Assembly (NCBI GenBank): GCA_016705235.1
Contig: JADIYP010000005.1
Coordinates: forward strand, 190,067 to 254,066
Source: Candidatus Leptovillus affinis
Lineage (GTDB): Bacteria > Chloroflexota > Anaerolineae > Promineifilales > Promineifilaceae
Direction of reading: 5' to 3'
DNA: 64,000 nucleotides
How positions within the stretch are numbered: the first letter of the stretch is position 1; every line of letters starts with the position of its first letter. Below the pieces are notes generated by a model. It did no database searches. It worked only from the letters and a program-made list of their open reading frames with translations, and was not told the origin of the DNA. Shown piece after piece: positions 10,601 to 28,989 of the stretch. A program made the position numbers and the translations under genes.

Positions 10601-10908
10601 ATTATTTACGTGAGAAGGGTTATCGGTTATTGGTGGCGCGGAACGGCCGTGAAGCCATCGAGCAGGCGGCTATGCTGCCGGATTTGGTTCTGATGGATAT
10701 TCAGATGCCGGAAATGGACGGGTTGCAGGCGATTAAACGGCTGCGAGCAGATGAGACAACGGCCGTTTTACCCATCATCGCCCTGACAGCCCTGGCAATG
10801 CCCGGCGACCGCGAACGCTGCCTGGCCGCCGGAGCCGACGCTTATTTGAGCAAGCCCCTCAGCCTGAAAGCTTTGCTGGCGGTGATTGAGATGTTTCCCA
10901 AAGCGTGA
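7675..10908 (+). CDS. Hybrid sensor histidine kinase (multi-TM N-terminus, two GAF-like regions, HisKA, HATPase_c, C-terminal receiver)
   Basis: H-box SHELRTPLNALLG. ATPase boxes LLSNAVKFT and GTGLGLS. C-terminal REC segment LILLAEDNEI...DLVLMDIQMPEMDG...SKPL. The exact start is uncertain because several in-frame Met codons are available. Confidence 0.9.
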   Translation: MREILPHKPGHSMHFGGPVVNASALLLSALTGIIMTLSSPTKAVTRIRIYGTLFVLMAVARYLLPPDAWQGNLTRHMALEFMAAMLAGFVGMLALVRYFTRRDNVFLFIGVGFVGAGLLDGLHVLAIYPHLADILPWLEFAPRWIWNTSPTFLSILIFGSWLTWRREVETGWYGRMTGRRLFILIFSLTLVNLLLFVLVAQSEAAPTLPLARVELFISTTFYLWALVNYLAKGHWQHDAFEHWLVVALLLSFSGQMFFMFSSVALFDAFFEVALALKLVGYFCVLVGLMGSIVIIFRQAAGSAAQLQQANDLLQQEIAERQRAERAEYEQRRLAEALREVGNALSATLDFDQLLERLLDQIAHVVPYDTANVMLLRGAEVDIVCTRGYGRSQTPLINHFALVEMPSLQQMAQSRQPLVIPDISADPDWVRADASPHVRSWAGIPIAVQQEVVAFLALNYSQPNFYQPAHATRLAAFAGQAAIAIQNARLYKALQQRVAELTTLNQISHAVTSSLDLQTTLTIVTAQATRLLDVDATSVVLLDREQGDLWFAAAFGQAAEFVRGKRLALGQGIVGWVVEHGQPLLITDAKADQRHFPNFDEVSKFTARTLLCAPLQVKGQTIGAIESINKATGPFDEADLRLLTLLAGPAAAAIENARLYEQARREIEERLRAEAALQAERAQLAQHVAERTADLSAANAELARANRLKDEFLASMSHELRTPLNALLGIGEALQEGVYGTLNNNQSRSLRSIEESGRHLLNLINDILDLSKIEAGKLALEPGPVSVREVCQASLRFIRQEAHKKALLVDLSVDPVVTTIWADERRLKQILVNLLSNAVKFTAVGGHIGLEVQGDAAQRAVCFVVWDQGIGIAPEDMQKLFRPFVQLDSRLSREYNGTGLGLSLVYRMAELHGGSVGLTSEVGRGSRFTVRLPWDPADKLGRPVNKTAQSPTAVQATEGKLILLAEDNEIFIETVGDYLREKGYRLLVARNGREAIEQAAMLPDLVLMDIQMPEMDGLQAIKRLRADETTAVLPIIALTALAMPGDRERCLAAGADAYLSKPLSLKALLAVIEMFPKA

Positions 10909-10956
10909 AGCGCATGGCGGACCACAATCGTCTTGCCGACTTTTGGGGTCTGTGTA

Positions 10957-12033
10957 ATGACAATGAACGAGCAACCGGTAATTTTGATTGTAGATGATGA
11001 TTTTACGGCGCGGCAGACGGCGGAAATGCTGCTGCTGCAAGAGGGGTATGCGCTGCATTTTGCGGCCAGCGGGCCAGAGGCGCTGCAACGCCTGCCGGAA
11101 ATAAACCCCGACGTGATTTTGTTGGATGTGATGATGCCAGGCATGGATGGGTTTGTGGTGTGCCGGGCATTGAAAACGGCCGTTGCCACCCAACACATTC
11201 CTGTTGTCCTGGTGACGGCGCTGGACAGCAAAGAAGATGTGGCGCGCGGCCTGGACGCCGGAGCCGACGACTTTATCCACAAGCCCGTGAACGGACTGGA
11301 ACTGCGTGCCCGCGTGCGGTCTATGCTGCGCATTAAGCAGCGCCACGATGAACTGCAAACGATGATGCGCCTGCGTCAGGATTTGTCGGACATGATCATC
11401 CACGATATTCGCAGCCCGCTGACGACCATTACGATGTACTGCGATTTATTGCAGCGTTATACGCCCCAACCCGAGGCGCAAGAGGCGCTGCACACCATCA
11501 CCGGCCAGGTGGTCCGGCTGAATGCGTACCTGACGGACATGCTGATGATGGCCAAGATGGAGCATGGCAAGCTGGTGCTGCTGCAAACGGCCGTTACCCT
11601 GAACGATCTGCTGCAAACGGCCTGCGACGCCTATCAGCCGCTGGCGGCGCAAAGGTCGGTGACGCTGGCTCTGGAAATGCCGTCGGAGCCACTGACCGCC
11701 AGCCTGGACGCAAATTTATGGCAGCGTGTGCTGGATAATTTGTTGTCTAATGCGCTGAAATTTTCGCCGGTAAACGGCCGTGTCACAGTGCAGTTACGGC
11801 CGTTACCCAACGCCCAATTTTGTGTGCAAGTCTGCGACGAAGGACCAGGCATTCTGCCGGAACACCGCGAGACAATTTTCGATAAATTCCAGATTGTGGC
11901 CGCCGGACAGCGCGAAGTGAAGCAGGTTGGGTTAGGGCTGGCTTTTTGTCGTCTGGTGGTAGAGGCGCATAACGGCCGTATCGCCGTCCACGCCAACGAC
12001 CCCCACGGCGCAATCTTCACAGTGGAAGCGTAG
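10957..12033 (+). CDS. Receiver-histidine kinase fusion (REC-HisKA-HATPase_c)
   Basis: REC segment ILIVDDD...DVILLDVMMPGMDG...HKPV, then H-box HDIRSPLTTI and ATPase boxes LLSNALKFSP and GLGLAF. I prefer the ATG at 10957 to the alternative start at 10933 used in the track. Confidence 0.85.
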   Translation: MTMNEQPVILIVDDDFTARQTAEMLLLQEGYALHFAASGPEALQRLPEINPDVILLDVMMPGMDGFVVCRALKTAVATQHIPVVLVTALDSKEDVARGLDAGADDFIHKPVNGLELRARVRSMLRIKQRHDELQTMMRLRQDLSDMIIHDIRSPLTTITMYCDLLQRYTPQPEAQEALHTITGQVVRLNAYLTDMLMMAKMEHGKLVLLQTAVTLNDLLQTACDAYQPLAAQRSVTLALEMPSEPLTASLDANLWQRVLDNLLSNALKFSPVNGRVTVQLRPLPNAQFCVQVCDEGPGILPEHRETIFDKFQIVAAGQREVKQVGLGLAFCRLVVEAHNGRIAVHANDPHGAIFTVEA

Positions 12034-12134: not shown

Positions 12135-12854
12135 ATGGCTCCAAACATATTATTGGTTGACGATGACACCGAATTGGTTCGCAGCTTGCGGTTGGTGCTG
12201 ACGCAAGATGGGTATGAAGTTCTGACGGCGCACAATGGGCTGGAAGGGCTGCAAACCGCCCACCAGATGCAGCCTGATCTGATTGTGCTGGATGTGAACA
12301 TGCCGTGGATGGACGGCCTGGAAGTTTGCCGCCGCCTGCGCCTGGACACCGACTCGGCGCTGCGCTTTGTACCCATCCTCTTTCTGACATCGCAAGACAG
12401 CGTGGATGACCATGTAACCGGCCTGGACGCCGGGGCCGATGATTATCTGGACAAGCCCTTTCAATCGAAAGAGTTAAAAGCGCGGGTGCGCGCGCTGCTG
12501 CGGCGGCGTGAAGCTGCCACAGCGCTGCCGGCTGCCGATACGCCAGAATTGACGGTGGGACCGTTGACGCTGCATTTGCAGGCGTGTTGGGTGCGCCGGG
12601 GCAGCGGCGAGGCGGTGCAGCTTACCCCGGCCGAGTTTGAGCTGTTGTACCACCTGATGACGCACCCGAAACGGCCGTTTTCCAGTGAGAACCTGTTGGA
12701 AGAAGTATGGGCCTACGCGCCTGGCACGGCCGATCCCAGTCTGGTGCGCTGGCACATCAAAAATCTACGCCTCAAGATAGAGCCAAACGCCAGCCAGCCG
12801 TCACTCATTCGCACGGTGTCTCGCCGGGGCTATATGTTGGTCCCGGAAGGATAA
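12135..12854 (+). CDS. OmpR/PhoB-family response regulator (REC + winged-helix DNA-binding domain)
   Basis: REC segment ILLVDDD...DLIVLDVNMPWMDG...DKPF. Winged-helix segment LTPAEFELLYHLM...VRWHIKNLRLKIE...IRTVSRRGY. Confidence 0.9.
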   Translation: MAPNILLVDDDTELVRSLRLVLTQDGYEVLTAHNGLEGLQTAHQMQPDLIVLDVNMPWMDGLEVCRRLRLDTDSALRFVPILFLTSQDSVDDHVTGLDAGADDYLDKPFQSKELKARVRALLRRREAATALPAADTPELTVGPLTLHLQACWVRRGSGEAVQLTPAEFELLYHLMTHPKRPFSSENLLEEVWAYAPGTADPSLVRWHIKNLRLKIEPNASQPSLIRTVSRRGYMLVPEG

Positions 12855-13041: not shown

Positions 13042-13629
13042 ATGAACAGCAACAATTTTTGGAAGAAGTTGGGTCGGGATGAAAGCGGTATCACCGCTCT
13101 GGAAACAGCCATCATCTTGATCGCCTTTATCGTGGTAGCTTCGGTTTTTGCCTTTACCATCCTGTCAGCCGGTACATTCTCCACAGAACGTGGTAAAGAA
13201 GCCGTCTACTCCGGTTTAGGCGAGGTGCAGTCCTCAATGGAAGTCAAAGGCTCCCTCATCGCCACGGCCGCCGTTAGCGGCACCACCGCTGCAGAAATGG
13301 ACACGTTGGTCTTTACGGTCGGCAACGTTGTTGGCGGTGAACCGCTGGACCTGAATACAACGACTCCGGTGATGGTGGTCAATTACGTAGACTCGGCGCA
13401 GTTCGAGAATGACTTGCCCTGGAGCACGAACTGGATTGTGTCCCACGACGGTGACGAACTGTTGGATAAAGGCGAACTGGTAGAAATTACTCTGGACCTG
13501 AGCAGCCTGACCACTCCTCTGGGCATCAATACGCAGTTCTCGGTAGAAATGAAACCGCCCAAAGGCGCGGCGCTGAGCATCCAACGCACCACCCCGCCCT
13601 ACTTCGACCAGGTGATGGACCTGAAATAA
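13042..13629 (+). CDS. arlB: Archaellin (archaeal-type flagellin, class III signal peptide)
   Basis: N-terminus MNSNNFWKKLGRDESG/ITALETAIILIAFIVVASVFAFTILSAG. It closely resembles crenarchaeal archaellin N-termini of the form ...KGLAGLDTAIILIAFIITASVLAY. AAGGAG lies 6 nt before the ATG at 13042; the track begins at an upstream TTG at 13024. Confidence 0.8.
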   Translation: MNSNNFWKKLGRDESGITALETAIILIAFIVVASVFAFTILSAGTFSTERGKEAVYSGLGEVQSSMEVKGSLIATAAVSGTTAAEMDTLVFTVGNVVGGEPLDLNTTTPVMVVNYVDSAQFENDLPWSTNWIVSHDGDELLDKGELVEITLDLSSLTTPLGINTQFSVEMKPPKGAALSIQRTTPPYFDQVMDLK

Positions 13630-13713
13630 CAAATCACAAGTTGCCACATGAATGAACAGTTCAGCCGGGCTTATGAGTCCGGCTAAACTGTTGTCAGCAA
13701 TAGGAGCAGTCTG

Positions 13714-14268
13714 ATGGACATCGAACAAAGAGTGAAATCTCTGGAACAAGAAATGAAGATTTTGAAGAATCAGGTTCAAAAAACGTTATTGGACATTCAA
13801 GAACAAATTCTCGTTCATTACCATCCGGCGCTCCGTACAGAAGATGAATCGTACGACGAAATCAGTGCCCCGGCGCGGGGCGCGACCAGACCGGCGTACA
13901 GCAATGGGCAGCCGGCGGCGGATTTCGAGCCGAACCAGCCCACAGGGTTGAAGGTACGTCAGGTTTCTTTGGCCGATTTGCGCGAGACGACACGGCCGTT
14001 ACCCGAAAAACTCCCCGCCGCCGCCACGCCTCCCGCCGCCGCCGACCAGTCTTTTGCCGGTCTGGTAGATTGGGTTGGGGGCAGCGTAGCCAAGATTGGC
14101 GCCGAGCGAACCCGTAAGCTGCTGGACCTGCGCGCATCTTCCGGCGCGGTTCCCCCAGACGTATACGATACGTTGCAGCAGTTGATTGTGTTATGTGACG
14201 AGAATGAAGGGGCAGATGCGGCGGAAACGGCCGTTCTGCTGCAACAACTCGCCCAACTACTGAACTAA
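13714..14268 (+). CDS. Hypothetical coiled-coil protein in the archaellum cluster (possibly ArlC/D/E-like; speculative)
   Basis: N-terminal coiled coil MDIEQRVKSLEQEMKILKNQVQKTLLDIQEQIL, a Pro/Ala-rich linker and a C-terminal globular part. The functional suggestion rests on position only. Confidence 0.4.
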   Translation: MDIEQRVKSLEQEMKILKNQVQKTLLDIQEQILVHYHPALRTEDESYDEISAPARGATRPAYSNGQPAADFEPNQPTGLKVRQVSLADLRETTRPLPEKLPAAATPPAAADQSFAGLVDWVGGSVAKIGAERTRKLLDLRASSGAVPPDVYDTLQQLIVLCDENEGADAAETAVLLQQLAQLLN

Positions 14269-14331
14269 CCACCGACAGATTGGTCCCATTTATTCGCCGG
14301 GTCTAATCGCTACAAGTACCAGAGGCATCAC

Positions 14332-14841
14332 ATGGACAAAGCAATCATGACCACAATGCTCATCGTCATCAGTATGGTGATGGGAGTTCTCCTGTTTAAC
14401 GCCGCCTATCCGGCCATCATCGAAAGCAACGACGCCATGACCAGCATGACCAGCCGCGCCGACGAAAAGCTAAAAAGCCAGATCACCATCGTCCATTCCG
14501 TGGGCGAGCTAGACAGCAGCAGTTGGTGGCAAGACACCAACGGCGACGGCGATTTCGACGTATTTGCCTGGGTTAAGAATGTGGGCGAAACGCGCATTGT
14601 GGCTTTGGAACAAACCGATGTGTTTTTTGGTCCTGAAGGCGCATTTAACCGCATTCCGCATCAAAGCGTCGCCAGCGGTTACCCCTATTGGACCTGGCAG
14701 GTGGAAAACGGCGGCCAATGGACGCCAACGGCCACCTTAAAAATTACCATTCATTATGGCGTGCCTTTGGGAAGCGGCCGTTACTTCCTCAAGGTCATCA
14801 CTCCCAACGGCGTAGACGCCGAATACTTCTTCAGCATGTAA
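14332..14841 (+). CDS. ArlF/ArlG-like archaellum protein (single N-terminal TM helix plus beta-rich domain)
   Basis: N-terminus MDKAIMTTMLIVISMVMGVLLFNAAYP. Its size and its position right after the archaellin fit FlaF/FlaG-type proteins. Confidence 0.5.
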   Translation: MDKAIMTTMLIVISMVMGVLLFNAAYPAIIESNDAMTSMTSRADEKLKSQITIVHSVGELDSSSWWQDTNGDGDFDVFAWVKNVGETRIVALEQTDVFFGPEGAFNRIPHQSVASGYPYWTWQVENGGQWTPTATLKITIHYGVPLGSGRYFLKVITPNGVDAEYFFSM

Positions 14842-14868
14842 ATCTGTTGAAAAAGTGGGATAGCTTTT

Positions 14869-15396
14869 ATGGAAACCATACTGACTGCTTTTATTGTCCT
14901 GGCTCTCATCTTGTTTGCCAGCCTCACCATTTTCACCGGCTACCTGAACGCGCAAGACACGCTGCGCGCCTCCTGGCAAGAGATGCAGACCCGCCTGAGC
15001 GACCAGATGCACACCGACCTCACGCCCATCTTGGCGCAAACCAAAAGTTCTGGCGCGGTCATCGAGCTAACACTGCGCAACGACGGCGACACCCGCCTGG
15101 CCGATTTCGCCGATTGGGATGTCATCGTCGAATACTACACCCCGCCTGGCGACCTTGCGGTGGGCTGGTACAGCTACAACGTCGGCGAACCGGCCGCCGG
15201 TGAGTGGAGCGTGATTGGCATTTATATAGACGCGGCCACGGCCGAGGGCGAAGTGTTTGAACCCGGGATTCTGAATCCGGGCGAGGAAGTTTTGCTGCGT
15301 CTGCGCGCCTTGCCCCCGGTCGGACCAAGCACCACCAATATGTTGACCATTGCCGCCGAGAATGGCGTGAGCGCCAGTATGCAGTTTGTGCGTTGA
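14869..15396 (+). CDS. ArlF/ArlG-like archaellum protein (second paralogue)
   Basis: N-terminus METILTAFIVLALILFASLTIFTGYL, about 175 aa, with the same architecture as 14332..14841. Confidence 0.5.
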   Translation: METILTAFIVLALILFASLTIFTGYLNAQDTLRASWQEMQTRLSDQMHTDLTPILAQTKSSGAVIELTLRNDGDTRLADFADWDVIVEYYTPPGDLAVGWYSYNVGEPAAGEWSVIGIYIDAATAEGEVFEPGILNPGEEVLLRLRALPPVGPSTTNMLTIAAENGVSASMQFVR

Positions 15397-15495
15397 TTGC
15401 CAGGCGCCTGGTTCAGGCGCAAGGCAACCTTTTTTTAGACATCGTAACCGATGCCATTTATTAGCAGTTCTGGCAAGTTTAACCGAGGGAAAAGC

Positions 15496-15903
15496 ATGAT
15501 TCAATTATCACCACCAGCCCGCAAGTCGGACCCGATTGATCTGGCCTATGCCCGCGACATCGTAGATGGCGACCTGGAATTGTTGCAAGAGATCGTGACG
15601 CTCTTTTTGTTCGATTGTTCGTACCAGGTGGCGGCGCTGCAAGAAGCTGTAGCCTCAGGCAGTGGAAACGCTGTAACAGCCAAAGCCCACCGCCTGAAGT
15701 GCAGCCTGGGTAACATCGGCGGTTGGCAGGCGTATCAATTGGTCTGCGAGATGGAACTCATGGGCTTGAGGAATGATCTGAGCGGGGCAGATGAGTGTTT
15801 GTTCCACCTGACAGCCGCGATGGAAGACATTGTGGCTTTCTTTGCGCAGCCGAACTGGGCGGAACAGGCAGAAGATGGGGCGACGTTCGACGAGGCACAA
15901 TGA
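15496..15903 (+). CDS. HPt (histidine phosphotransfer) domain protein
   Basis: AKAHRLKCSLGNIG fits the HPt H-x-x-K-G/S motif within a four-helix-sized protein. The ATG at 15496 follows GAGGGA. The stop overlaps the next start (ATGA at 15900). Confidence 0.65.
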   Translation: MIQLSPPARKSDPIDLAYARDIVDGDLELLQEIVTLFLFDCSYQVAALQEAVASGSGNAVTAKAHRLKCSLGNIGGWQAYQLVCEMELMGLRNDLSGADECLFHLTAAMEDIVAFFAQPNWAEQAEDGATFDEAQ

Positions 15904-16325
15904 ACCATTCGCATCGCATCCTGGCAATAGATGATGATCCGCTGACGCTGCACATTGTAGAGCATGTGCTGCAAAAGCATGGGTATGAGGTATTTACGGC
16001 TGGTAACGGCCACGATGGCCTGGAATTGGCCCGTGTTCTAAAACCCGACCTGGTGATTTTGGACATTATGATGCCGGGGTTGGATGGCTTTCAGGTGTGC
16101 CGCAAGCTGCGCGAAAACCCGGAAACGGCCGTTATCACCGTCCTCATGCTCACAGCCCGTGGCGCCATAGACAAACCGGTCAGCGACCCGGTGGATTTTG
16201 CCCAGCGGGTGCGCGACCAGCTTAACGGCTACCACGTGGGCGCATCCGATTTTCTGACCAAGCCGGTTAAAGCGGCCGTTCTGGTGGAAAGAGTGCGCTC
16301 GTTAATCTGGAGCGGTAGGAATTAA
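15900..16325 (+). CDS. CheY-like single-domain response regulator
   Basis: RILAIDDDPLTL...DLVILDIMMPGLDG...TKPV. Confidence 0.85.
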   Translation: MNHSHRILAIDDDPLTLHIVEHVLQKHGYEVFTAGNGHDGLELARVLKPDLVILDIMMPGLDGFQVCRKLRENPETAVITVLMLTARGAIDKPVSDPVDFAQRVRDQLNGYHVGASDFLTKPVKAAVLVERVRSLIWSGRN

Positions 16326-16326
16326 A

Positions 16327-17385
16327 ATGGCACAGAAGATTTTGGTCATTGAAGATGATGTGCAGATGTTGGCATGGACCCAAGGCCTCCTGGAAGACGA
16401 AGGCTACGATGTGCTGGTGGCTATTGACGATGGGGCAGGATTAAAAACGGCCGTGTCCGAAAAACCCGATCTCATCCTGCTAGACATTTTTTTGCCCGGC
16501 ATGGACGGCGAAGAAGTCGCCCGCTATTTACGCGCCGACCCCGAAACGGCCGAAATCCCCCTCATCATGCTCGCCAACGACAGCCAGCTAGACAGCCTCA
16601 CCATCGGCCACGAATCTCCCGTAGACGATTACCTCATCAAGCCCTTCGATGCCGTTACACTGGTCACTAAAATCCTGCCCTACCTGGGTCGCAAAGGACC
16701 GCAAAAAAGCGTCATTTCCTCCGGCAACGGCGAATTAGACAGCAAAATGGGCGGCGGCATTCCCTTAGGCTCTCTCACCCTTGTCGAAGGCAGTTCTGGG
16801 GCCGGCAAATCCGTCCTTTCGCAGCAAATGATATTTGGCTCCCTAAACGACAGCTTCACCCTATCGCTGTTTACCAGCGAAAACAGCGTCAGAAGCCTGG
16901 TGAAACAAATGCGCAGCCTGGACCTGGATATTCTGGACTATTTGCTCCTGGGCAAAATCCGTGTTTACCCGATGGAACTATCCCGTTTAGGCAACACAGC
17001 CCCCCGACTGCTGCTTCAGGCCATGAGCCAGGAAACCAGCCGCGACATGATCATCGTCGATTCGTTGACGCTGGCTATTGGCCAATCCACCCTCGAAGAA
17101 GTATTGGGGTTTTTTGAGGAATGCAAGCGGCTTTGCGCGCGCGGCAGCAGCATCATCCTCATCTTACATTCCCACGCGCTCAACAGTGAATTGTTGGTGC
17201 GCATCCGCTCATTGTGCGACGCGCATTTGCAGCTTCGCACCGAAGAAGTAGGCAAAAAACTGGTTAAAACGTTGGAAGTAACCAAAGTTCGTGGCGCGGA
17301 CAAAACCACCGGCAATATCGTCAGCTTTGAAGTGGAACCCGGATGGGGTATGCGCGTCATCCCGGTAAGCAAAGTGAAGGGATAG
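16327..17385 (+). CDS. arlH: Receiver domain fused to ArlH/FlaH (KaiC/RecA-like archaellum ATPase)
   Basis: Residues 1 to about 125 form a REC domain: KILVIEDD...DLILLDIFLPGMDG...IKPF. The C-terminal part is ISSGNGELDSKMGGGIPLGSLTLVEGSSGAGKSVLSQQMIFGS...FTSENSVRSLVKQMRSLDLDI, matching the FlaH consensus and including a Walker A motif. Confidence 0.8.
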   Translation: MAQKILVIEDDVQMLAWTQGLLEDEGYDVLVAIDDGAGLKTAVSEKPDLILLDIFLPGMDGEEVARYLRADPETAEIPLIMLANDSQLDSLTIGHESPVDDYLIKPFDAVTLVTKILPYLGRKGPQKSVISSGNGELDSKMGGGIPLGSLTLVEGSSGAGKSVLSQQMIFGSLNDSFTLSLFTSENSVRSLVKQMRSLDLDILDYLLLGKIRVYPMELSRLGNTAPRLLLQAMSQETSRDMIIVDSLTLAIGQSTLEEVLGFFEECKRLCARGSSIILILHSHALNSELLVRIRSLCDAHLQLRTEEVGKKLVKTLEVTKVRGADKTTGNIVSFEVEPGWGMRVIPVSKVKG

Positions 17386-17481
17386 TCACGTAGTCTAGTA
17401 GTCAAGTAGTCTGGTAGCCATGACTACTCGACTAGACAACTACTCGACTAAACGACTACTCGGCTAAGCGGCTAAAAAATT

Positions 17482-19239
17482 ATGTCTCAATCAGTCCTTC
17501 CTTTCCCATTTCAAACAGGTGGCGCGCAGTGCAACCACGGTGTGGGATGCAGCCTGCAAATGGTGCTGCCGCCGCCGCTGCGCGACGCTTGCGAACGGGC
17601 AGATTTCCTGGCGGATTATTTGCACCAGGTTCCGTTGGGCGACATCGGGATTCCCGTGTATTACCCCACGCTTTCACGCAAGCTGCAACTGTTGGAACGA
17701 CGCAACCTCATTTATCCTATTGACGGCGGTTTGTTTGTCCACATTTACCCCGACGCTGTCGCGGCCCGCGACCATTATGTCTCCATAGAACCAACTGTAA
17801 TGGTGAATCTGGATGAGGTGATGCTGAAGATTGACGAGCGTCTGGTGGAATGGGCCGAAGACATTGGGGAGGTAGTAGACGAAGAAGAAAAGAAGCAGAT
17901 GCTGCTAAAGTTACTTGACCAAATTTGCACAACGGAACTGCCACAGGCTAATGGCAGTGGGAACGGGAACGGGAACGGCCGTACCCCATCCGCCAAAGCC
18001 GCCGCCAGAAAAAGCAAAACCGACCCCATTTACGTTACCGCGCAGCAACTGGAAGGCGTGCGTTACCGCGTCCTGCGCGACAAAGTTGGGCTTGGGCCAC
18101 TACAGCCGCTGCTGCTGGACCCCTACATAGAAGACATCAGTTGCAGCGGCGTCGGGGCCATCTTCGTTGAACACAAAATCTTCAAAAGCCTGCAAACCAC
18201 CATCAACTTCGAGACCCTGGACCAACTCGACGATTTCGCCGTCTGGCTGGGCGAATGGATCAAAAGCCCGGTGACTGTGCGCAACCCCATCGTGGATGCC
18301 GTGTTGCCGGATGGGTCACGTATTAACATTGTGTACGGCCGTGAGATCTCCAAACGCGGCAGCAACTTCACCATCCGCAAGTTCGGCGGTTCCACCACCA
18401 GCATCATGGAACTTATCGAATACGGCACGCTGGATTACACCATGGCCGCCTACCTTTCGCTCATCATGGAGGAGGGGATGAACGTCTTTGTTGTCGGGGC
18501 CACAGCCTCCGGCAAAACGACGACGTTGAACGCCATCAACACCTTCATTTTGCCGGAAGCCAAAATCATCACCATCGAAGACACCCCTGAAGTGATGGTT
18601 CCCCACAAAAACTGGATTCGGGAAGTCACCCGCGATATGGGGCGCGAGTCCGCAGGGGGCAGCGTGGGCATGTTCGATCTACTCAGAGCGGCGCTGCGGC
18701 AGCGGCCGGATCGCATCATCATCGGTGAAATTCGTGGCGAAGAAGGACGCATCGCCTTTCAGGCCATGCAAACCGGTCATGGCGTCATGTCTACCTTTCA
18801 CGCCGCCTCAGTGGAAAAACTGATCCAACGTCTCACCGGCGACCCCATCAACGTGCCCAAAACTTATATAGACAACCTCAACGTCGCCGTGGTGCAATCG
18901 GCCGTGCGCCTGGCCGACAAAAAAATGGCCCGCCGCATCCTTAGCATCAATGAAATCATCGGCTATGACCCTTATACAGAAAGTTTCTCCTTTCTGGAAA
19001 CTTTTCGCTGGAATCCGGCCAATGACACATTCGAGTTTCCCGGCTATATGAACAGCTTCTTGCTGGAAGAGCGCATTGCTATGCGGCGCGGCATTCCGCC
19101 CCAAAAGCGCAAAATGATTTATACCGAATTGAAACGCCGGGCAACCGTTTTTCAACGGCTGCATAAAGAAAAAGGAGTGCGTGGTTTTGATGACTTCTTC
19201 CAAATCCTTGCCGAAGCCCATCGCCAAAAGCTCTTATAA
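17482..19239 (+). CDS. arlI: ArlI/FlaI-type secretion-superfamily ATPase (archaellum motor/assembly ATPase)
   Basis: Walker A GATASGKTTTLNAI, Walker B DRIIIGEIRG, a His box TGHGVMSTFHA and an N-terminal FlaI-like region NLIYPIDGGLFVHIY...YVSIEP. Confidence 0.85.
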   Translation: MSQSVLPFPFQTGGAQCNHGVGCSLQMVLPPPLRDACERADFLADYLHQVPLGDIGIPVYYPTLSRKLQLLERRNLIYPIDGGLFVHIYPDAVAARDHYVSIEPTVMVNLDEVMLKIDERLVEWAEDIGEVVDEEEKKQMLLKLLDQICTTELPQANGSGNGNGNGRTPSAKAAARKSKTDPIYVTAQQLEGVRYRVLRDKVGLGPLQPLLLDPYIEDISCSGVGAIFVEHKIFKSLQTTINFETLDQLDDFAVWLGEWIKSPVTVRNPIVDAVLPDGSRINIVYGREISKRGSNFTIRKFGGSTTSIMELIEYGTLDYTMAAYLSLIMEEGMNVFVVGATASGKTTTLNAINTFILPEAKIITIEDTPEVMVPHKNWIREVTRDMGRESAGGSVGMFDLLRAALRQRPDRIIIGEIRGEEGRIAFQAMQTGHGVMSTFHAASVEKLIQRLTGDPINVPKTYIDNLNVAVVQSAVRLADKKMARRILSINEIIGYDPYTESFSFLETFRWNPANDTFEFPGYMNSFLLEERIAMRRGIPPQKRKMIYTELKRRATVFQRLHKEKGVRGFDDFFQILAEAHRQKLL

Positions 19240-20680
19240 ATTTAAGAACATCACGGCTTTTGACCAGTTTTACCAGTTGACCTACATGTCGGCTACGGCC
19301 GCTGCCGGCATCTCGCGCAGCAAAACGTTTGAAATGGCGGCGGAATCCGGTTCGCCGGCGGCCAATTATTTTATCGCCATCAATTTGCTGGTGAATGAAC
19401 TCCGTTTCGACTACCCGGAAGCGTGCCGCACGGTGGCCGATAAAGCGCCCTCGGACGAGATCAAAAGTTTCCTGCTGCGCCTGTCCGACGCGATGCGGTC
19501 TGGCGAGCCGTTGCCCGCTTTTCTGGCCCGCGAAGCGGCGGTGCAGGCGAATGTGTACGATAACGCCTACGAACGCGATCTGGAATCGCTGAAAAAATGG
19601 TCGGATGCGTTTTCTTCGATTGTGGTTTCGGTGGCCCTGATTGTGATCATTAATTTGGTATCGACGATGATTTATTCGATGGGCACGGGCATGATTACCG
19701 GGTTGGTGATAACGGCCGTGATCATGGGTTTCTTTGGCGCCTGGATTCTCTCCCGCGCTGCTCCACAAGAAGAGATGACCATTCCCTCGGCCATAGGGTC
19801 AGACGGCCAGCGGCGTACCCTGCAATTAAGCCGTATTATCATCCCCACGGCCGTTCTCCTCGGCGGTGTTTTGGCATTTCTCGGGTTTAGCCAGGTATGG
19901 GTACTGGTAGCCGTATCGGCCGTGCTGCTGCCTCTGGGCATCGTCAGCTCGCGGGCCGACGCGGAAATCACCAAAAAAGACGCCGAAATCAGTTCGTTTT
20001 TACGCTCGGTAGGCGGCATGGCTACTTCCACCGGCACCACCCTCAAAGAAGCCATCACCAAAATAGACATCAGCTCCTTTCCCCGGCTTCAACCCGATGT
20101 AAAGCGGTTGGATACGCGCCTGCGTGCCCTGGTCAGCCCAACGGTTTGCTGGCAGCGCTTTGGCAACGAGACCGGCAGCCGCCTGATTCGGCAGGCTGTC
20201 GGCATTTTTTACGAAGCGGTACGCCTGGGCGGCGATCCGGAACAAGTGGGATTTCTTTGCTCAATGTTTGCGTCGCGCACCGCGATGCTGCGCGCAAAAA
20301 GGCGCACGGTAGTCAGCACGTTTACCTGGCTAACGCTGGTTATGCATATCGTCGTCGCCGCGCTGATGGTATTTGTACTGCACATCATTCACAACTTCTT
20401 GCTCCTGATGCAATCGGCCATGACGGCGGATCAGGCGGCGTTGGCCTCGGAAAATCTGGCGATGCCGCTGGCTAATTTTAGCCCGCAGCAGATGCAGTTT
20501 CTGGACGCCATTACCATCATGATGGTGGTCTTGCTGGCGGTTATCAGCGCGATGGCCATCGTCGCCAGTGATGGCGGGTATAAATTTAAGCTCACGCTTT
20601 ACCTGGCGGTGCTGCTTTTTATGTCGGGCATTAGCTTCTGGATTGTGCCGCCTATGGTAGCGCAGTTGTTGACAATTTGA
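19181..20680 (+). CDS. arlJ: ArlJ/FlaJ-type polytopic membrane platform protein (T2SSF/TadC-like)
   Basis: About 500 aa with two T2SSF-like repeats and multiple TM helices, immediately after arlI. The start is ambiguous (GTG 19181 or ATG 19190). Confidence 0.75.
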   Translation: MVLMTSSKSLPKPIAKSSYKFKNITAFDQFYQLTYMSATAAAGISRSKTFEMAAESGSPAANYFIAINLLVNELRFDYPEACRTVADKAPSDEIKSFLLRLSDAMRSGEPLPAFLAREAAVQANVYDNAYERDLESLKKWSDAFSSIVVSVALIVIINLVSTMIYSMGTGMITGLVITAVIMGFFGAWILSRAAPQEEMTIPSAIGSDGQRRTLQLSRIIIPTAVLLGGVLAFLGFSQVWVLVAVSAVLLPLGIVSSRADAEITKKDAEISSFLRSVGGMATSTGTTLKEAITKIDISSFPRLQPDVKRLDTRLRALVSPTVCWQRFGNETGSRLIRQAVGIFYEAVRLGGDPEQVGFLCSMFASRTAMLRAKRRTVVSTFTWLTLVMHIVVAALMVFVLHIIHNFLLLMQSAMTADQAALASENLAMPLANFSPQQMQFLDAITIMMVVLLAVISAMAIVASDGGYKFKLTLYLAVLLFMSGISFWIVPPMVAQLLTI

Positions 20681-20760
20681 TCCTATTTAACAGATTTACA
20701 CCGATTTTCTGATGATTGAGGGTAACGATAAAGACCCCAAGGGTTTGCTTCCTTGAAAAT

Positions 20761-20793
20761 AGATTTGTCAAATCTTTAAGATTTGACAAATCT
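20761..20793. repeat. Double palindrome AGATTTGTCAAATCT-TTA-AGATTTGACAAATCT
   Basis: Read directly in the sequence. It belongs to a family with members at 26200, 37734 and 56461. Confidence 0.7.
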
Positions 20794-20836
20794 CAACCTT
20801 TTCATTCGTGGTGGTGGGTTAGACCACTCATGATGT

Positions 20837-21040
20837 CTCCTGGGAATATAAACCCTTGGGGTTTTGCCGGAGAAACCTGAACAGACCCCAAGGGTTTGCT
20901 CCTGGGAATTTGGAATATTTGGACACCAAACCCCTGGGGTTTTGCCGGAGAAACCTGAACAGACCCCAAGGGTTTGCTCCTGGGAATTTGGAATATTTGG
21001 ACACCAAACCCTTGGGGTCTTGCCGGAGAAACCTGAACAG
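20837..21040 (+). repeat. About 2.5 copies of a 78-bp tandem repeat, each unit carrying the inverted pair AAACCCTTGGGGT / ACCCCAAGGGTTT
   Basis: Units start at 20850, 20928 and 21006. A further ACCCCAAGGGTTTGCT lies at about 20736. The ORFs predicted here (20802..21176, 20856..21050, 20864..21223) are repeat artefacts. Confidence 0.85.
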
Positions 21041-21063
21041 TTACGATTAAGGAATGACGTATT

Positions 21064-22098
21064 ATGTCTAAATCCACACGGCCGTTTCGCCTTCTTCTTC
21101 CCCTGGTTTTTATCGGTGGGCTGCTGTTCGGCTGGCTGGTCATCGGCTGGTGGTTGTGGCCTATCCAGTGGGCCAACGTGGCCCCGGCGCAGCTATCGTC
21201 AGACCATCAGCGGATTTACGTAGCCATGGCCGCCGAAGCCTATGCCCTGACGGGTGACGTAGCCCAGGCGCAGTCGCGGTTGGCAACCTGGGACAACGCG
21301 ACACTGGCTGCCACCCTGACTTTGCTGATTCAGGAAACGACCGATCCTGTGGTCCGTGAGCGTTACATTGCATTGGGAGAAGCGCTGGCCATGCCGCAGG
21401 TAGACTTGAGTCTGATGGACGTGATTTTAGGGCAGAAAGCGATTCTGGTAACGGCCGTCGCCGCCGTTGGCCTCTTCTTGGCCGCTTTGGGGATGGCCTT
21501 GTTTCCTGTTTTGCAGCAGACCAGAGCGCGCCAACAGGAAGAGCTGCTTCTGTTGAACGGCGCCGAAGCGGGAACAGACATGGATGGAGATGAGCAAACG
21601 GCCGTTTCTTCCAGCAGCGCTGCCCGGCAAAACAACGGCGGAACCGAGACGGCCGCAAACGCTGGCCAGGGCAGCGCCCCTGACTCGGCGGCCAACACTA
21701 CCTCGCAAACAAACGCTGGCGACCAGGCAACCGCCGGTGGCGGCGGGACCGGACAGCCCGGCGCGGCCCAGGCCGCAGGCGGGAAACAGGCGCAGCAAAA
21801 CCCGGCCAACGCCGCCGCGCAGCCACCCGAACAGCAGGCAACGGCCGTGCAGAATCCGGCCAACGCCCCCGCGCCAGCCGCCAATCAGCCGCCGCCCGAA
21901 GAAACGGCCGAAAAACTACTCGCCGAAGCAACCGGCGATATTCAAGCCCTGCTCAACAGCATCTTCGACGAAGACGACAAGCTTGCCCATTACGATACAC
22001 TGCTGCACAACATGGGCGACGTTGATATGGTTCGATTGGCAGACCGCAGCGCCCAAATGCTGCGTCAACTGCGGCAAAAGAACCGGGAGACAGCCTGA
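21064..22098 (+). CDS. Hypothetical membrane protein with a long Ala/Gln/Pro/Asn-rich disordered region
   Basis: Two predicted TM helices (LLLPLVFIGGLLFGWLVIGWWLW and ILVTAVAAVGLFLAALGMALF), a low-complexity middle and a short conserved-looking C-terminus. No family recognised. Confidence 0.5.
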   Translation: MSKSTRPFRLLLPLVFIGGLLFGWLVIGWWLWPIQWANVAPAQLSSDHQRIYVAMAAEAYALTGDVAQAQSRLATWDNATLAATLTLLIQETTDPVVRERYIALGEALAMPQVDLSLMDVILGQKAILVTAVAAVGLFLAALGMALFPVLQQTRARQQEELLLLNGAEAGTDMDGDEQTAVSSSSAARQNNGGTETAANAGQGSAPDSAANTTSQTNAGDQATAGGGGTGQPGAAQAAGGKQAQQNPANAAAQPPEQQATAVQNPANAPAPAANQPPPEETAEKLLAEATGDIQALLNSIFDEDDKLAHYDTLLHNMGDVDMVRLADRSAQMLRQLRQKNRETA

Positions 22099-22099
22099 C

Positions 22100-22711
22100 A
22101 TGGACCTGCTATGGTTGATTTTGGGGTTTTTGTTGGGCTGGTTGTTGAACTGGCTGAGCGACTTTTTACCGTGCCGCCTGGCTAAAACGCCGCGCCCGGC
22201 CAATCTACGGGGACGCGCTGCTGGCTTGCCCTGGATGATAGGGGCGATGACGGCCGTGGCCTGTTATTACTTTGGCTTGCGCGGGCAATGGGTCTCTCTA
22301 GTCTTGTACGCATTTTTCTTGTTGATTGCCCTGATCGACGGCAAACACAGGTTGGTCCTGAACGTGCTGGTGTACCCGGCTATCGCCCTGACGCTGGTTT
22401 ATCATCTGGTCGCCGGGGGGCAGTCCTGGACGGCCGTATGGTTGGGCGGAGGCTTGGCCCTGGCTGCTTTTGTCCTGGCTGCCTGGCTGCGCCCCGGCGA
22501 TTTGGGCGGCGGCGACGTGAAACTGGCGGCGCTGATTGGCCTGATCTTCGGTTTCCCTGGTGTGTTGTGGCCGCTGCTGCTGGGTGTAGGGCTGGGTGGA
22601 TTGGCCGCCGCCTATTTGCTGCTGCGTGGATACGGCCGTCGCTATCACATCCCCTATGCTCCCTTTTTGTCCCTTGGCGTCTTTATCGCTCTTCTTTACA
22701 CCCCTCTCTAA
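22100..22711 (+). CDS. Peptidase A24 family prepilin/preflagellin peptidase
   Basis: MDLLWLILGFLLGWLLNWLSD..., a first Asp box LIALIDGKHRLV and a second Asp box GGGDVKLAALIGLIFG. The ATG at 22100 follows the upstream stop directly. The 5' part of track ORF 21584..22711 is an out-of-frame overlap with the upstream gene. Confidence 0.85.
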   Translation: MDLLWLILGFLLGWLLNWLSDFLPCRLAKTPRPANLRGRAAGLPWMIGAMTAVACYYFGLRGQWVSLVLYAFFLLIALIDGKHRLVLNVLVYPAIALTLVYHLVAGGQSWTAVWLGGGLALAAFVLAAWLRPGDLGGGDVKLAALIGLIFGFPGVLWPLLLGVGLGGLAAAYLLLRGYGRRYHIPYAPFLSLGVFIALLYTPL

Positions 22712-23160: not shown

Positions 23161-23979
23161 ATGCGCGAATCTTCTTATGATTTAGACACCGTTCTGAGGG
23201 AACAAACGGCCACAAATTCCCGGCGTCCCATCATTTTGTGGTTAGTCGCCTTGGGATTACTGCTGCTGTTTGTGCCCTTGTACCTGGTAGCCACGGCCGT
23301 GCGCGCCGACACCCAACGTCTGGAGAGCGAATTAAGCCAGTTGCAAATGGCGGAGATGGGCGATCCGGGGGGCGATCCTACGATAAACGCCTTGCAAACC
23401 AGAGTAGCCGAAGCACAAACTGAGGCGGATAGTCTGGCCGCCATCCAGTCGAGCACAGGCGCGCAGCATGTGAATTGGCCGGCCGTAGTGGATGCCATCA
23501 AGACCGACGCCAATCAGATCACGTTGTTGGGCGTAGAACAGGCGGATAATCGCCTGACTATTTCAGGTGAAGCGGCTGATGATACGGCCGTTATCGCCTA
23601 TGCCCAGGAACTGGAAGCGTCCGGGCAGTTTGCGCGGATTGTGGTGCAGTCAATTACGCTGCTGCCTACACCGCAACCGGTCATTACGCCGACGTTGTCG
23701 CCCTCGCCTATTGCAACAACTGCGCCCTCACCAACCACGGTCGCAGCCACAGCAACAAGCGCCGGCCCGGTGACAAACCCAACGGCCGTGCCCACCATCA
23801 CCCCCACGCCCAATTTGCGCGACGCTTACGAGGTTGACGACAGCCAGGCTAAACCCATATTTGTCGGCGAAGTGCAGACCCGCAACTTCTACCCCCAGGG
23901 CGATGTGGACAACGCCTGGTTTTTGGCTAAGAACGGCCGTTTCTACACCATTGCCACCACCAACCTTTCCCCGGCGTAG
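23161..23979 (+). CDS. PilN-like membrane protein, 5' portion of a gene apparently interrupted by a -1 frameshift
   Basis: TM helix ILWLVALGLLLLFVPLYLVA, a coiled coil, and a PilN-like core ITLLGVEQADNRLTISGEAADDTAVIAYAQELEASGQFARIVVQSI. A Pro/Thr linker follows, then the start of a beta-domain whose paralogue (24240..24420) continues in the frame of the next ORF. Confidence 0.6.
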   Translation: MRESSYDLDTVLREQTATNSRRPIILWLVALGLLLLFVPLYLVATAVRADTQRLESELSQLQMAEMGDPGGDPTINALQTRVAEAQTEADSLAAIQSSTGAQHVNWPAVVDAIKTDANQITLLGVEQADNRLTISGEAADDTAVIAYAQELEASGQFARIVVQSITLLPTPQPVITPTLSPSPIATTAPSPTTVAATATSAGPVTNPTAVPTITPTPNLRDAYEVDDSQAKPIFVGEVQTRNFYPQGDVDNAWFLAKNGRFYTIATTNLSPA

Positions 23980-23984
23980 ACACC

Positions 23985-25073
23985 GTGCTCACTGTTATCA
24001 TCAATGGCCAGGAATACGTCAACGATGACCGGCAAGATGGAACCCTGGCCTCAGAAATTGGCGTCCAAAGCCTTGCCGGAGACGTGCAAGTCTTTATCCA
24101 GGTGACCAATCGCGGGCAGTTTGGGCCACAGATGGGCTATCAGCTTTTTGTGCAGGAAATGGTTCCTACGCCTGGTCCTACAGCTACCCAAACGCTGCCG
24201 CCGCCCACCGCCCAGCCAGACCCCACCAGCACCCCAGACTTGCGCGATGCGTTTGAACCCGATGAAACCACTCCGACCGTTATCCTGGTAGGCGAGACGC
24301 AAACGCGCAATTTCTTCCCTCAGGGAGACCAGGACAACGCCAGTTTTATCACCAAGGGCGGGCGTTTTTACCAGGTTGCCACGTCGAACCTGGCGCTGGG
24401 CGTAGATACGTTTCTACGCGTGACGCTAGATGGCGCTCAATGGGAAAACGACGATTATGCCCCGGCGGGCACAGGCAACTTTGCCTCGTCGGTTTGTTTT
24501 CCGGCGGCGTCGGTAGACGGCACGGCCGTTGCCAACATCACCAACAAAATGCAGCAGTTCAGCCCCAGCGCTGCCTACAACATCGCCGTTTTGGAAGTGC
24601 CGGCCCTAAGCCTGAATCTGGACCAACTGGCTTTTGGTCCGGCCGCCGCCGGCGGGGCCAACCCGCCCAACCAATCTGTGCAAATCTTTGGCGACAGTAC
24701 GTTGAGCTGGTCGGCCGTTACCAGCGCGCCCTGGCTGCAAATCAGCCCCAATCAGGGCGGCGCGCCCAGCCTGATGGATGTAACGGCGAACATTACCGGG
24801 CTACCGCAAGGCACATATGAAGGAACCATCACCTTTTCCTGGGCTTCCTTATGCCGCCGCGAAGTGAAAGTGACGTTGCAGGTTGATCCTCCGGCGGTTA
24901 GTAACAATCAGACCGGACAGGAAAATGGGCTGGTTTTGGCGATGGGGCGAGTGGGAGAAACGGCCGTTTCCCGTCGCCTCATCCTGGCGAAGCAAATCGC
25001 CCAACCCCTAACCAGCGCTGTCCCGCTGAACACCGTCGCTTTTGTCATCATTGTCGAATTGCAGGGGCAGTAA
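23985..25073 (+). CDS. 3' portion of the same PilN-like gene: two pre-peptidase-C-terminal-like domains and a BACON-like domain
   Basis: Frame B reads ...PGVDTVLTVIINGQEYVNDD directly across the frame-A stop, paralleling ALGVDTFLRVTLDGAQWENDD further on. The C-terminal LSWSAVTSAPWLQISPNQGGAPSLMDVTANITGLPQGTYEGTITF is BACON-like. Confidence 0.55.
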   Translation: MLTVIINGQEYVNDDRQDGTLASEIGVQSLAGDVQVFIQVTNRGQFGPQMGYQLFVQEMVPTPGPTATQTLPPPTAQPDPTSTPDLRDAFEPDETTPTVILVGETQTRNFFPQGDQDNASFITKGGRFYQVATSNLALGVDTFLRVTLDGAQWENDDYAPAGTGNFASSVCFPAASVDGTAVANITNKMQQFSPSAAYNIAVLEVPALSLNLDQLAFGPAAAGGANPPNQSVQIFGDSTLSWSAVTSAPWLQISPNQGGAPSLMDVTANITGLPQGTYEGTITFSWASLCRREVKVTLQVDPPAVSNNQTGQENGLVLAMGRVGETAVSRRLILAKQIAQPLTSAVPLNTVAFVIIVELQGQ

Positions 25074-26993: not shown

Positions 26994-27020
26994 AGTTTGG
27001 TAGTCCTGTAGTTTGATGGT

Positions 27021-27126
27021 CTAGCAGTCTGTCGGAGAACCTCTTTTTGTAGCCGGGGTATCCTTACCCCGCCTCTGGAAGACGGTAAGAAACCGCGGCT
27101 ACGGGTACTTTCCGACAAACTGCTAG
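27021..27126 (+). repeat. Foldback (MITE-like) element, copy C (106 bp), inserted between cas2 and cas4
   Basis: Same sequence as 2032..2140 with 3 nt deleted. It is flanked on both sides by GTAGTC-word low-complexity sequence. Confidence 0.85.
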
Positions 27127-27215
27127 TAGTCTTGTAGTCTTGTAGTCGGGTAGTCGAATTGTCTGGTCGTGTGGCAAAAGCTATCCACCTCTTCCTATCA
27201 ACTCCCAACTCCCTA

Positions 27216-27458: not shown

Positions 27459-27542
27459 GGGAATTTCGGATTTTTGATTTCGGATTTCGGATGGGGGGAT
27501 ATGCCGAAATCCCAAATCCCAAATCCGAAATCCTGAATCGTT

Positions 27543-28586: not shown

Positions 28587-28610
28587 AGGGAACTCCGAAT
28601 GGTGAATTAC

Positions 28611-28650
28611 TAATCGTCAATCGTTAATTGTCAATCGTCAATTGCTAATG
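28611..28650. promoter_or_regulatory. Tandem TCAATCGT / TCAATTG words in the divergent cas1 / HTH-gene promoter region; candidate operator
   Basis: TAATCGTCAATCGTTAATTGTCAATCGTCAATTGCTAATG, read directly in the sequence. No binding protein has been demonstrated. Confidence 0.25.
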
Positions 28651-28677
28651 GGGGTAGGGTAGCAGACGGCCGTTTGA

Positions 28678-28989
<312 letters not shown>

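Follow-up and report, generated by a model that had tools for sequence, protein, structure and literature searches.

A probable arl2-type archaellum operon with a receiver domain fused to ArlH in an activated-sludge Chloroflexota bacterium

The DNA analyzed here is a 64,000-nucleotide (nt) stretch of contig JADIYP010000005.1 (assembly GCA_016705235.1, positions 190,067 to 254,066) from Candidatus Leptovillus affinis, which we call the window, and the system in question is an archaellum-type gene cluster at 13042-22711 within it. The cluster holds 11 genes, all on the + strand in the list of open reading frames (ORFs), and their starts were refined through upstream Shine-Dalgarno-like sequences and the gene calls in near-identical public contigs. 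It begins with arlB, encoding an archaellin with a class III signal peptide (13042-13629), and an ArlD/E-like gene recognized through profile-profile links (13714-14268). Two predicted stator genes follow: arlG, whose product has an N-terminal transmembrane (TM) helix and a beta-sandwich domain (14332-14841), and arlF, with an N-terminal TM helix and an immunoglobulin-like (Ig-like) domain (14869-15396). Next come a gene for an Hpt protein of 135 amino acids (aa; Pfam Hpt; 15496-15903), a stand-alone CheY-like receiver (REC) of 141 aa (Pfam Response_reg; 15900-16325) and a REC-ArlH fusion (16327-17385), in which REC occupies residues 1-120 and a KaiC-like ArlH ATPase residues 125-352. The gene for the motor and assembly ATPase, arlI (NCBIfam FlaI equivalog; 17482-19239), precedes arlJ, which encodes the polytopic membrane platform protein (ArlJ families, T2SSF; 19190-20680). 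A conserved two-TM accessory protein that belongs to no Pfam or NCBIfam family (21064-22098) and a 203-aa A24 prepilin (class III signal) peptidase (Pfam Peptidase_A24; 22100-22711) complete the cluster. The starts of the Hpt gene and arlJ are those called in the loci L081-L084.

An original prediction, made from the letters alone, had described this set as a complete archaellum core, and every gene that it named was found in its place and co-directional on the + strand. It had also described a tightly packed cluster with ATGA start/stop overlaps; the packing is tight but not uniform, and there is only one true ATGA overlap, between the Hpt and REC genes (15900-15903). Two junctions are gaps of 1 nt, arlI and arlJ overlap by 50 nt and the spacers in the cluster measure 27-383 nt. 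An AAGGAG Shine-Dalgarno sequence precedes arlB. By homology, ArlB, the A24 peptidase, ArlI, ArlJ, ArlH, ArlG/ArlF and an ArlD/E-like protein are all present, and we consider it very probable that the cluster is an archaellum operon of the arl2 type, carried on the chromosome of an activated-sludge Chloroflexota bacterium.

ArlB matches Pfam Arch_flagellin with E = 3.9e-27 and 96 bits (cut-off 29.5), and its N-terminal domain matches TIGR02537. In the PDB, the whole of the mature protein aligns with the archaellin chain 9i5h_C (E = 6e-57), from an entry that we take to be the archaellum filament of Litorilinea aerophila. Cleavage is predicted after G16 (ESG/ITALETAIILIAF...), ahead of a hydrophobic segment at residues 23-41. 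The deposited chain 9i5h_C starts at ArlB residue 17, supporting the class III signal peptide with cleavage after ESG that had been read from the sequence. The crenarchaeal look attributed to the archaellin is a signature of the arl2 locus type and does not point to a crenarchaeal donor. In the public annotation ArlB (MBK6326923.1), ArlG and the 21064 protein are called "hypothetical", and REC-ArlH is called "response regulator".

The predicted A24 peptidase was confirmed above the Pfam cut-off (Peptidase_A24, E = 5.6e-11, 43 bits, cut-off 26.5), with both catalytic aspartates kept: D80 and D139, the latter in a G-x-G-D139 motif, show no variation among 33 locus-linked homologues. Pfam gave no match to an N-terminal methyltransferase domain (DiS_P_DiS), and a PDB sequence search found no match for the peptidase or for ArlJ. 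The peptidase gene lies in the gene neighborhood at 30 of the 77 related loci that hold arlH. One NCBI record gives a 434-aa "A24 family peptidase" in which the C-terminus of the 21064 protein is joined to the peptidase.

ArlI scores 646.9 bits on the NCBIfam FlaI equivalog NF058587 (cut-off 550), compared to 167 bits on the TadA model (cut-off 373), 198 bits on the bindosome ATPase and 66-80 bits on the PilB and PilT models (cut-offs 319-676). Among PDB chains, FlaI of Sulfolobus acidocaldarius (4ii7) scores 420 bits (E = 1e-124) and CpaF 152 bits, in agreement with the prediction of a FlaI/ArlI ATPase. Some annotations place the start of arlI about 78 nt downstream, and the protein measures 561-587 aa in other assemblies. 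For ArlJ, the only NCBIfam matches are ArlJ families, the best being NF004703 (356 bits, E = 3e-106, under its cut-off of 570); Pfam T2SSF is above cut-off in two stretches and about 7-8 hydrophobic segments are seen. Homology to the proposed FlaJ/ArlJ platform protein is clear, although the score falls short of the curated threshold. The ATPase part of REC-ArlH scores 262 bits on the FlaH family NF004723 (cut-off 194) and 201.5 bits on the ArlH equivalog NF052589, slightly under its cut-off of 215. Pfam finds Response_reg (7e-19) and the KaiC ATPase (3.4e-16) in the same protein. Its best PDB match is FlaH 4yds (E = 8e-31), so the KaiC-like domain is assigned to FlaH/ArlH as foreseen, and the ArlH Walker A and B motifs are invariant in 119 family members.

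An ArlI protein identical to that of the window (MBK6326930.1) is publicly named "Flp pilus assembly complex ATPase component TadA". Judged by the family scores, the TadA name is a mis-annotation. That name, the PilN-like gene adjacent to the cluster and the membership of ArlI and ArlJ in superfamilies (T2SSE and T2SSF) shared with Tad and archaeal pilus proteins could be taken to mean that the cluster makes a non-rotating archaeal-type type IV pilus, such as an adhesion pilus or a bindosome-like structure, or a Tad/Flp pilus, and not a swimming organelle. We regard this as very improbable, given the 647 bits on the FlaI equivalog against 198 and 167 on the bindosome ATPase and TadA, the joint occurrence of ArlH, ArlF and ArlG, all three archaellum-specific, a filament protein that matches solved archaellins and not pilins, and the swimming of L. 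aerophila, which has the same locus layout. The ATPase, platform protein and A24 peptidase are distant homologues of those of the bacterial Tad/Flp pilus (CpaF/TadA, TadB/C and TadV). Tad systems are not known to have ArlH, ArlF/G or an archaellin, whereas ArlH, F and G are in the window. Tad is thought to derive from an archaeal pilus. Also, unlike a type IVa pilus, the locus has only a PilN-like domain, and PilM and PilQ were not found among the window ORFs scanned. The core parts thus fit archaellum families by their scores, and not Tad or type IV pilus families.

The stator pair required family profiles. Searching Pfam and NCBIfam with the single 13714 and 14332 ORFs gave nothing useful, and both were placed later from profiles. 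Alignments were built from syntenic homologues of ArlG (n = 64, profile A1) and ArlF (n = 41, profile A2). Profile A1 matched the S. acidocaldarius FlaG structure 5tug_A with E = 5e-17. An AlphaFold (AF2) model of ArlG, computed from database homologues, reached a predicted local distance difference test score (pLDDT) of 86; FlaG structures were its top four Foldseek PDB matches, led by 5tuh_B (E = 4.6e-9, target TM-score 0.88). The ArlG hydrophobic segment spans residues 4-22. Profile A2 matched the S. acidocaldarius FlaF structure 4p94_A with E = 3.6e-13, and ArlF alone gave 29.9 bits on Pfam Arch_flagellin (cut-off 29.5), 5e-5 on FlaF_Ig-like and 2.6e-4 on NCBIfam ArlF. The single-sequence scores on the NCBIfam ArlF and ArlG models fall below cut-off. 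The two single-TM proteins predicted to be ArlF/G-like are told apart by their structure matches, 14332 as ArlG and 14869 as ArlF. In an Aggregatilineales-type clade (Aggregatilinea / Ca. Flexifilum) whose ArlH is unfused, ArlF is about 380 aa long (L008 8086-9243, L023 8097-9236). L008, the only one of these scanned, carries C-terminal cadherin-like/Big_9 Ig domains in the extension (Cadherin_3, E = 1e-38), and such an extended extracellular ArlF is perhaps an adaptation to a bacterial envelope.

The 13714-14268 protein has an N-terminal coiled coil, a variable linker and a C-terminal helical domain without a TM segment, and it has no direct Pfam or NCBIfam match. Its family profile (A3) links to a profile of the archaeal genes that lie between arlB and arlG (A4) with an hhalign probability of 98.9% and E = 1.4e-17. 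On Pfam Arch_fla_DE these archaeal genes, from Methanosarcinales and others, score no higher than the cut-off or just under it (21.0 bits versus 21). The gene at this position in L. aerophila was named ArlDE by its authors, and by these profile links the window protein is ArlD/E-like. No separate ArlC was found. Taken with the motor proteins, family scores and structure matches place ArlI far nearer to FlaI than to TadA or CpaF, the KaiC-like domain with FlaH, and 14332 and 14869 with FlaG and FlaF, so none of the three outcomes that had been named as grounds for rejecting the archaellum was observed.

The order arlB-arlDE-arlG-arlF-arlH-arlI-arlJ is common to more than 70 related loci, archaeal ones among them: Methanosarcinales (L053, L057) and Methanoxibalbensis (L062). 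An arlG gene followed by arlF defines the arl2 locus type (PMC12488501). The arl2-type operon of S. acidocaldarius, flaB-flaX-flaG-flaF-flaH-flaI-flaJ, keeps arlG, F, H, I and J in the order seen in the window, and this species supplied the closest solved structures of four of the parts (FlaG 5tug, FlaF 4p94, FlaH 4yds and FlaI 4ii7). It differs in that the window has an ArlD/E-like gene after arlB (coiled coil and DE-type domain, without TM) in place of the membrane-anchored ArlX, a receiver domain on ArlH and a host with a bacterial envelope.

Archaellum genes were reported in SAR202 Chloroflexota in 2023, and the machinery was then found in 243 of 3,780 Chloroflexota genomes (Sivabalasarma et al., Nat Microbiol 2025; PMC12488501). 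The same study determined the structure of the L. aerophila filament at 2.7 Å and inferred that the machinery had been transferred from Methanotecta euryarchaea with arl2-type clusters. L. aerophila had been described as non-motile before it was grown on soft agar, where its arl genes are expressed and it forms polar filaments of 11-12 nm and swims at about 10 μm/s (PMC12488501). The window resembles L. aerophila in its Chloroflexota host, in the order arlB-arlDE-arlG-arlF-[receiver]-arlH-arlI-arlJ with a single-domain receiver (called "CheY" there) between arlF and arlH, and in PilN/PilO-type genes nearby. It is unlike L. aerophila in its A24 peptidase gene, which lies two genes after arlJ here and outside the locus there (PMC12488501), and unlike the published accounts of that species in its Hpt gene and the receiver fused to ArlH, a fusion on which those papers are silent. 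The caveat that an archaellum in Chloroflexota might not be new was well placed: with swimming and a 2.7 Å filament already published for L. aerophila, the core gene set is a further case of the published archaellum transfer into Chloroflexota and not new.

The host was examined through the surroundings of the cluster and through the 80 ArlI loci that come closest to it in a species-level genome collection. Those loci carry Chloroflexota-type labels, barring five archaeal metagenome-assembled genomes (MAGs) and two generic or doubtful ones. The nearest ArlI proteins are 96% (a Chloroflexota MAG), 90% (an Ardenticatenaceae MAG) and 81% (Ca. Trichofilum aggregatum) identical, and the closest archaeal one, from Methanosarcinales, stands at about 54%. 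A REC-ArlH protein of exactly this sequence is found on at least 23 public contigs; the four that were retrieved, 19-555 kb long, are 99.0-99.7% identical in nucleotides to the window over the cluster and both flanks. They share its junctions, with GH32 and histidine kinases upstream and Cas4 downstream. Exact copies of the window ArlI, ArlB, GH32, Cas1, PyrB and COX1 are labeled Chloroflexi/Chloroflexota bacterium or Candidatus Promineifilaceae bacterium, newer near-identical MAGs are labeled Candidatus Promineifilaceae, and GC content is flat across the cluster.

Since the source is a MAG, the archaellum genes could be an assembly or binning artefact, that is, an archaeal fragment joined to or binned with bacterial DNA, and binning errors do exist here. 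One near-identical 19-kb contig is filed as Ca. Amarobacter glycogenicus / Dehalococcoidia. Such an artefact is scarcely credible when the same junctions recur in at least four other assemblies, at the identities given above and on contigs of 217-555 kb, when bacterial-type two-component genes are interleaved in an operon of uniform GC content, and when the closest ArlI loci are labeled as they are, with the nearest archaeal ArlI at only about 54%. A Ca. Amarobacter glycogenicus (Tepidiformia) host was itself considered and rejected: the label comes from that 19-kb contig, with fragmentary proteins, whereas the exact proteins lie on 200-555-kb Chloroflexi/Promineifilaceae contigs and the nearest ArlI is of the Ardenticatenaceae type. 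The 19-kb contig is probably mis-binned.

The flanks had been called bacterial, and the OmpR-type regulator, two MalT/LuxR regulators, pyrB, an amidohydrolase, two SCO1 genes and COX1 were indeed found, with GH32 and GH81 hydrolases and histidine kinases also present in the window. The statement that bacterial flagellar genes and a Pil set were lacking needs a correction in part. No bacterial flagellar, PilB, PilC, PilM or PilQ genes were seen among the scanned ORFs, but shortly 3' of the cluster there is a PilN-like gene. No host markers came out of Rfam and tRNA scans of the window. Overall, the gene content and relatives support a bacterial host and a horizontal origin; near-identical loci in several Chloroflexota MAGs agree with the proposed horizontal acquisition, and the published phylogeny addresses the origin.

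Other systems were observed 3' of the archaellum neighborhood. A type I CRISPR-Cas system lies directly 3' of it at 26406-42941, with genes for Cas4, Cas1, a WYL/WCX regulator, Cas3, a Cas7/DevR-Csa2 protein and Cas6 and an array at 41466-42941 of about 20 units with the 37-nt repeat GTCGCCCCACCAGAGAATCGCCAGAGATTACTGAAAC. The two MalT-type regulators (AAA_16-TPR_MalT-GerE/LuxR) are 900-aa paralogues at 43379-46117 and 48786-51488, and each adjoins a zinc-dependent alcohol dehydrogenase-family gene (47764-48738 and 52079-53221).

Two further + strand genes lie between the cluster and the CRISPR-Cas system. The first encodes a PilN-like membrane protein (23161-25073) with C-terminal beta-rich/BACON-like domains (Pfam PilN 1.1e-5, BACON_2 5.4e-4), and the second a membrane-anchored TPR protein (25096-26103) with a hydrophobic segment at residues 29-57 and C-terminal TPR repeats (TPR_14 7e-7). 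The TPR gene is kept 3' of the PilN-like gene in most Anaerolineae-type loci and, by position alone, occupies the place of the L. aerophila PilO-like gene. Pfam detected no LysM domain on the downstream proteins. A 2026 paper on L. aerophila proposed that PilN/PilO near the archaellum locus aid the crossing of the bacterial envelope. Within the cluster, the 21064 protein starts with a hydrophobic segment, followed by a small helical domain and another hydrophobic segment; a long Ala/Gln/Pro-rich low-complexity linker then leads to a helical region at the C-terminus, which is conserved. No more than 15 homologues turned up in the protein database, the named ones all from Chloroflexota, and the mean pLDDT of its AF2 model is 56.7, with confidence at residues 40-110 only.

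Two spacers of the cluster are rich in repeats. Tandem Repeats Finder (TRF) detected 16-nt direct repeats in the arlH-arlI spacer (17383-17467, + strand), in two mutually complementary sets, TAGTCAAGTAGTCTAG and ACTACTCGACTAAACA, that form one long hairpin (RNA fold -36.3 kcal/mol, z = -3.8). On the fold prediction, this hairpin could serve for attenuation, processing or protein binding within the operon. The 383-nt spacer between arlJ and the 21064 gene holds 2.4 copies of a 78-nt tandem repeat (20850-21040; TRF; fold z = -8.0). It is built from palindromic AAACCCTTGGGGT...ACCCCAAGGGTTT units, a motif confined to 20734-21018 within the window. The blastn alignments to L081, L082 and L083 are each split at 20850-21040, with overlapping halves. 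A promoter and terminator scan was uninformative, as its counts equaled the shuffled-sequence level.

Evidence for function was drawn from selection and from the integrity of the genes. Ratios of nonsynonymous to synonymous substitution (dN/dS) were calculated with L001, a 90%-identical locus, and the more distant L003. The genes arlB, G, F, H, I and J give 0.04-0.14 and the accessory genes 0.17-0.31, with the 21064 gene at 0.28-0.31. Since dS reaches up to about 1.0 in these comparisons, the purifying selection has been long-lasting. The ORFs of 13042-22711 are all intact, as are the nucleotide-binding and catalytic motifs. Indirect evidence thus points to a functional cluster.

Some points weigh against a working archaellum of the kind proposed. 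ArlJ stays under all the NCBIfam equivalog cut-offs (570, 400 and 550), the ArlD/E assignment comes from profile-profile links alone, and the archaellum of this organism is known here from genes alone. Also, the one exception to intact ORFs in the neighborhood, the PilN-like gene, is split in two by a deletion of 1 nt from a run of five C near 23969. This frameshift, the repeat-rich spacers that could disturb co-transcription and the lack of any literature report of activated-sludge Chloroflexota swimming with archaella would all suit a silent or decaying relic with no working motor in this lineage. We find a relic very unlikely, considering the intact core ORFs with invariant catalytic motifs, the low dN/dS of the arl genes at dS of up to about 1.0 and the fact that L. 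aerophila, too, was called non-motile until soft agar was used. As for the frameshift, the gene is intact (637 aa) in L081 and L083, and L082 has another 1-nt indel near 24834. We take the deletion for a probable homopolymer error, of a kind typical for MAGs from long reads, since it affects a C-homopolymer and three sister assemblies lack it, as a sequencing error predicts, but it may be a real lesion.

If the archaellum works as archaeal systems and L. aerophila suggest, the A24 peptidase would cut ArlB after Gly16, and ArlI with ArlJ would insert ArlB into the filament and then rotate the filament by ATP hydrolysis. ArlF and ArlG would anchor the motor to the wall, and the downstream PilN-like and TPR proteins would help the machine across the bacterial envelope. 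Among these loci, ATP-driven rotation giving swimming has been shown in the literature only for L. aerophila (PMC12488501).

The remaining genes of the cluster, those for Hpt, REC and the receiver part of REC-ArlH, would belong to signaling. The Hpt protein scores 26.9 bits on Pfam Hpt (cut-off 24.6), and its phosphorylatable His65, in the motif AHRLKCSLGNIGG, is invariant in 14 of 14 sequences (13 related loci and the window). The stand-alone REC matches Response_reg with 2.2e-25 and has D11-D13, D55, T85 and K121, while the ArlH receiver has E9/D10/D11, the acceptor D53 and K105. Upstream of arlB, on the + strand, lie a hybrid sensor histidine kinase (7675-10908) with the domains MASE3-GAF-GAF-HisKA-HATPase-REC (Pfam domains of the identical gene in L081-L084), a REC-HisKA-HATPase_c histidine kinase (10933-12033; Pfam) and, immediately 5' of arlB, the OmpR-type response regulator (REC and Trans_reg_C in Pfam; 12135-12854), with a dN/dS of 0.07-0.09. 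The upstream REC-containing genes are kept in L001, L003, L005 and L022. From its position, the OmpR-type protein is a possible transcriptional regulator of the archaellum operon, and the hybrid kinase is a candidate input kinase of a phosphorelay.

The fusion was then followed through the 77 related loci with arlH, 22 of which have REC-ArlH (fused) and 55 an unfused ArlH. An Hpt domain lies nearby in 12 of the 22 fused loci and in none of the 55 unfused ones, and a receiver gene lies directly upstream of arlH in 17/22 versus 0/55. A homologue of the 21064 gene is present in 17/22 and 4/55, respectively. In relatives, large REC-containing proteins often carry the Hpt domain at their C-terminus. 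Every one of the 22 fused loci is from Anaerolineae-type Chloroflexota, and no Dehalococcoidia or archaeal locus is fused. In a neighbor-joining tree of ArlI the fused loci cluster, with one unfused clade nested inside; this tree is crude (distance method, midpoint root, without a Tad outgroup) and serves for the grouping of REC-fused loci, not for the origin of the transfer. The insertion of Hpt, REC and REC-ArlH between arlF and arlH is clade-specific. In the protein database, full-length REC-ArlH sequences make up at least 119 clusters, and the only names they bear are "response regulator", "FlaH" or "ATPase domain-containing protein". No mention of the REC-ArlH fusion or of the Hpt was found in the archaellum papers examined or by full-text searches, and within this literature the earlier remark that the signaling fusions look unexplored holds, and the REC-ArlH/phosphorelay module is apparently the sole undescribed feature of the locus.

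ArlH regulates ArlI via its phosphorylation state, and the fused receiver is therefore a plausible handle on the motor. We tentatively propose, on adjacency, co-occurrence and residue conservation, that in one large Anaerolineae-type Chloroflexota clade the acquired archaellum has been rewired to two-component signaling of the bacterial kind, with a relay from kinase to Hpt to receiver that ends at REC-ArlH and acts directly on the ArlH-ArlI interface, a proposal that we hold to be somewhat short of probable. The hybrid kinase, Hpt, the single-domain REC and REC-ArlH would form a His-Asp-His-Asp phosphorelay. Phosphorylation of the ArlH receiver would alter ArlH oligomerization or ArlI binding, and the altered ArlH would switch assembly or rotation.

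Several observations tell against this relay. The hybrid kinase is linked to it by proximity only, the Thr/Ser switch residue is Ala in most REC-ArlH members, including that of the window, and about 30% of the family have Gly, Ser or Ala where the acceptor Asp should be. Also, the co-occurrence counts come from loci that are not phylogenetically independent. Because of the Ala at the switch position and the acceptor lost in about 30% of the family, the ArlH receiver may act as a pseudo-receiver.

The proposed relay can be compared with the CheY-CheF-ArlCDE switch of euryarchaea, reportedly described by Li and colleagues in Mol Microbiol in 2020. In both, a receiver signal reaches the motor from its cytoplasmic side, and both have an ArlD/E-type protein; unlike in that switch, the receiver of the window is covalently fused to ArlH and accompanied by Hpt. 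CheF is reported absent from Chloroflexota, where another coupling protein may exist (PMC12488501), and no che genes were found among the window ORFs scanned. A 2026 preprint doubts that the L. aerophila receiver is a CheY and reports that no chemosensory system was found in Litorilinea genomes. The REC-ArlH fusion and Hpt suggest, from their domains, a phosphorelay rather than CheA-CheY chemotaxis, and this phosphorelay would substitute for the archaeal CheY-CheF-ArlCDE link.

The core result is one more well-supported case of a whole archaeal motility machine in a bacterium, the principle of which was already set in 2023-2025. Since the public annotation of these genes is wrong or empty, the swimming potential of abundant activated-sludge Chloroflexota has been overlooked. 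The Hpt/REC/REC-ArlH insertion is a concrete candidate for bacterial control of an archaeal motor without CheF. If true, a phosphorelay on ArlH would be an undescribed mode of archaellum control and would answer the question, raised in 2025, of how the motor is coupled in CheF-less Chloroflexota (PMC12488501).

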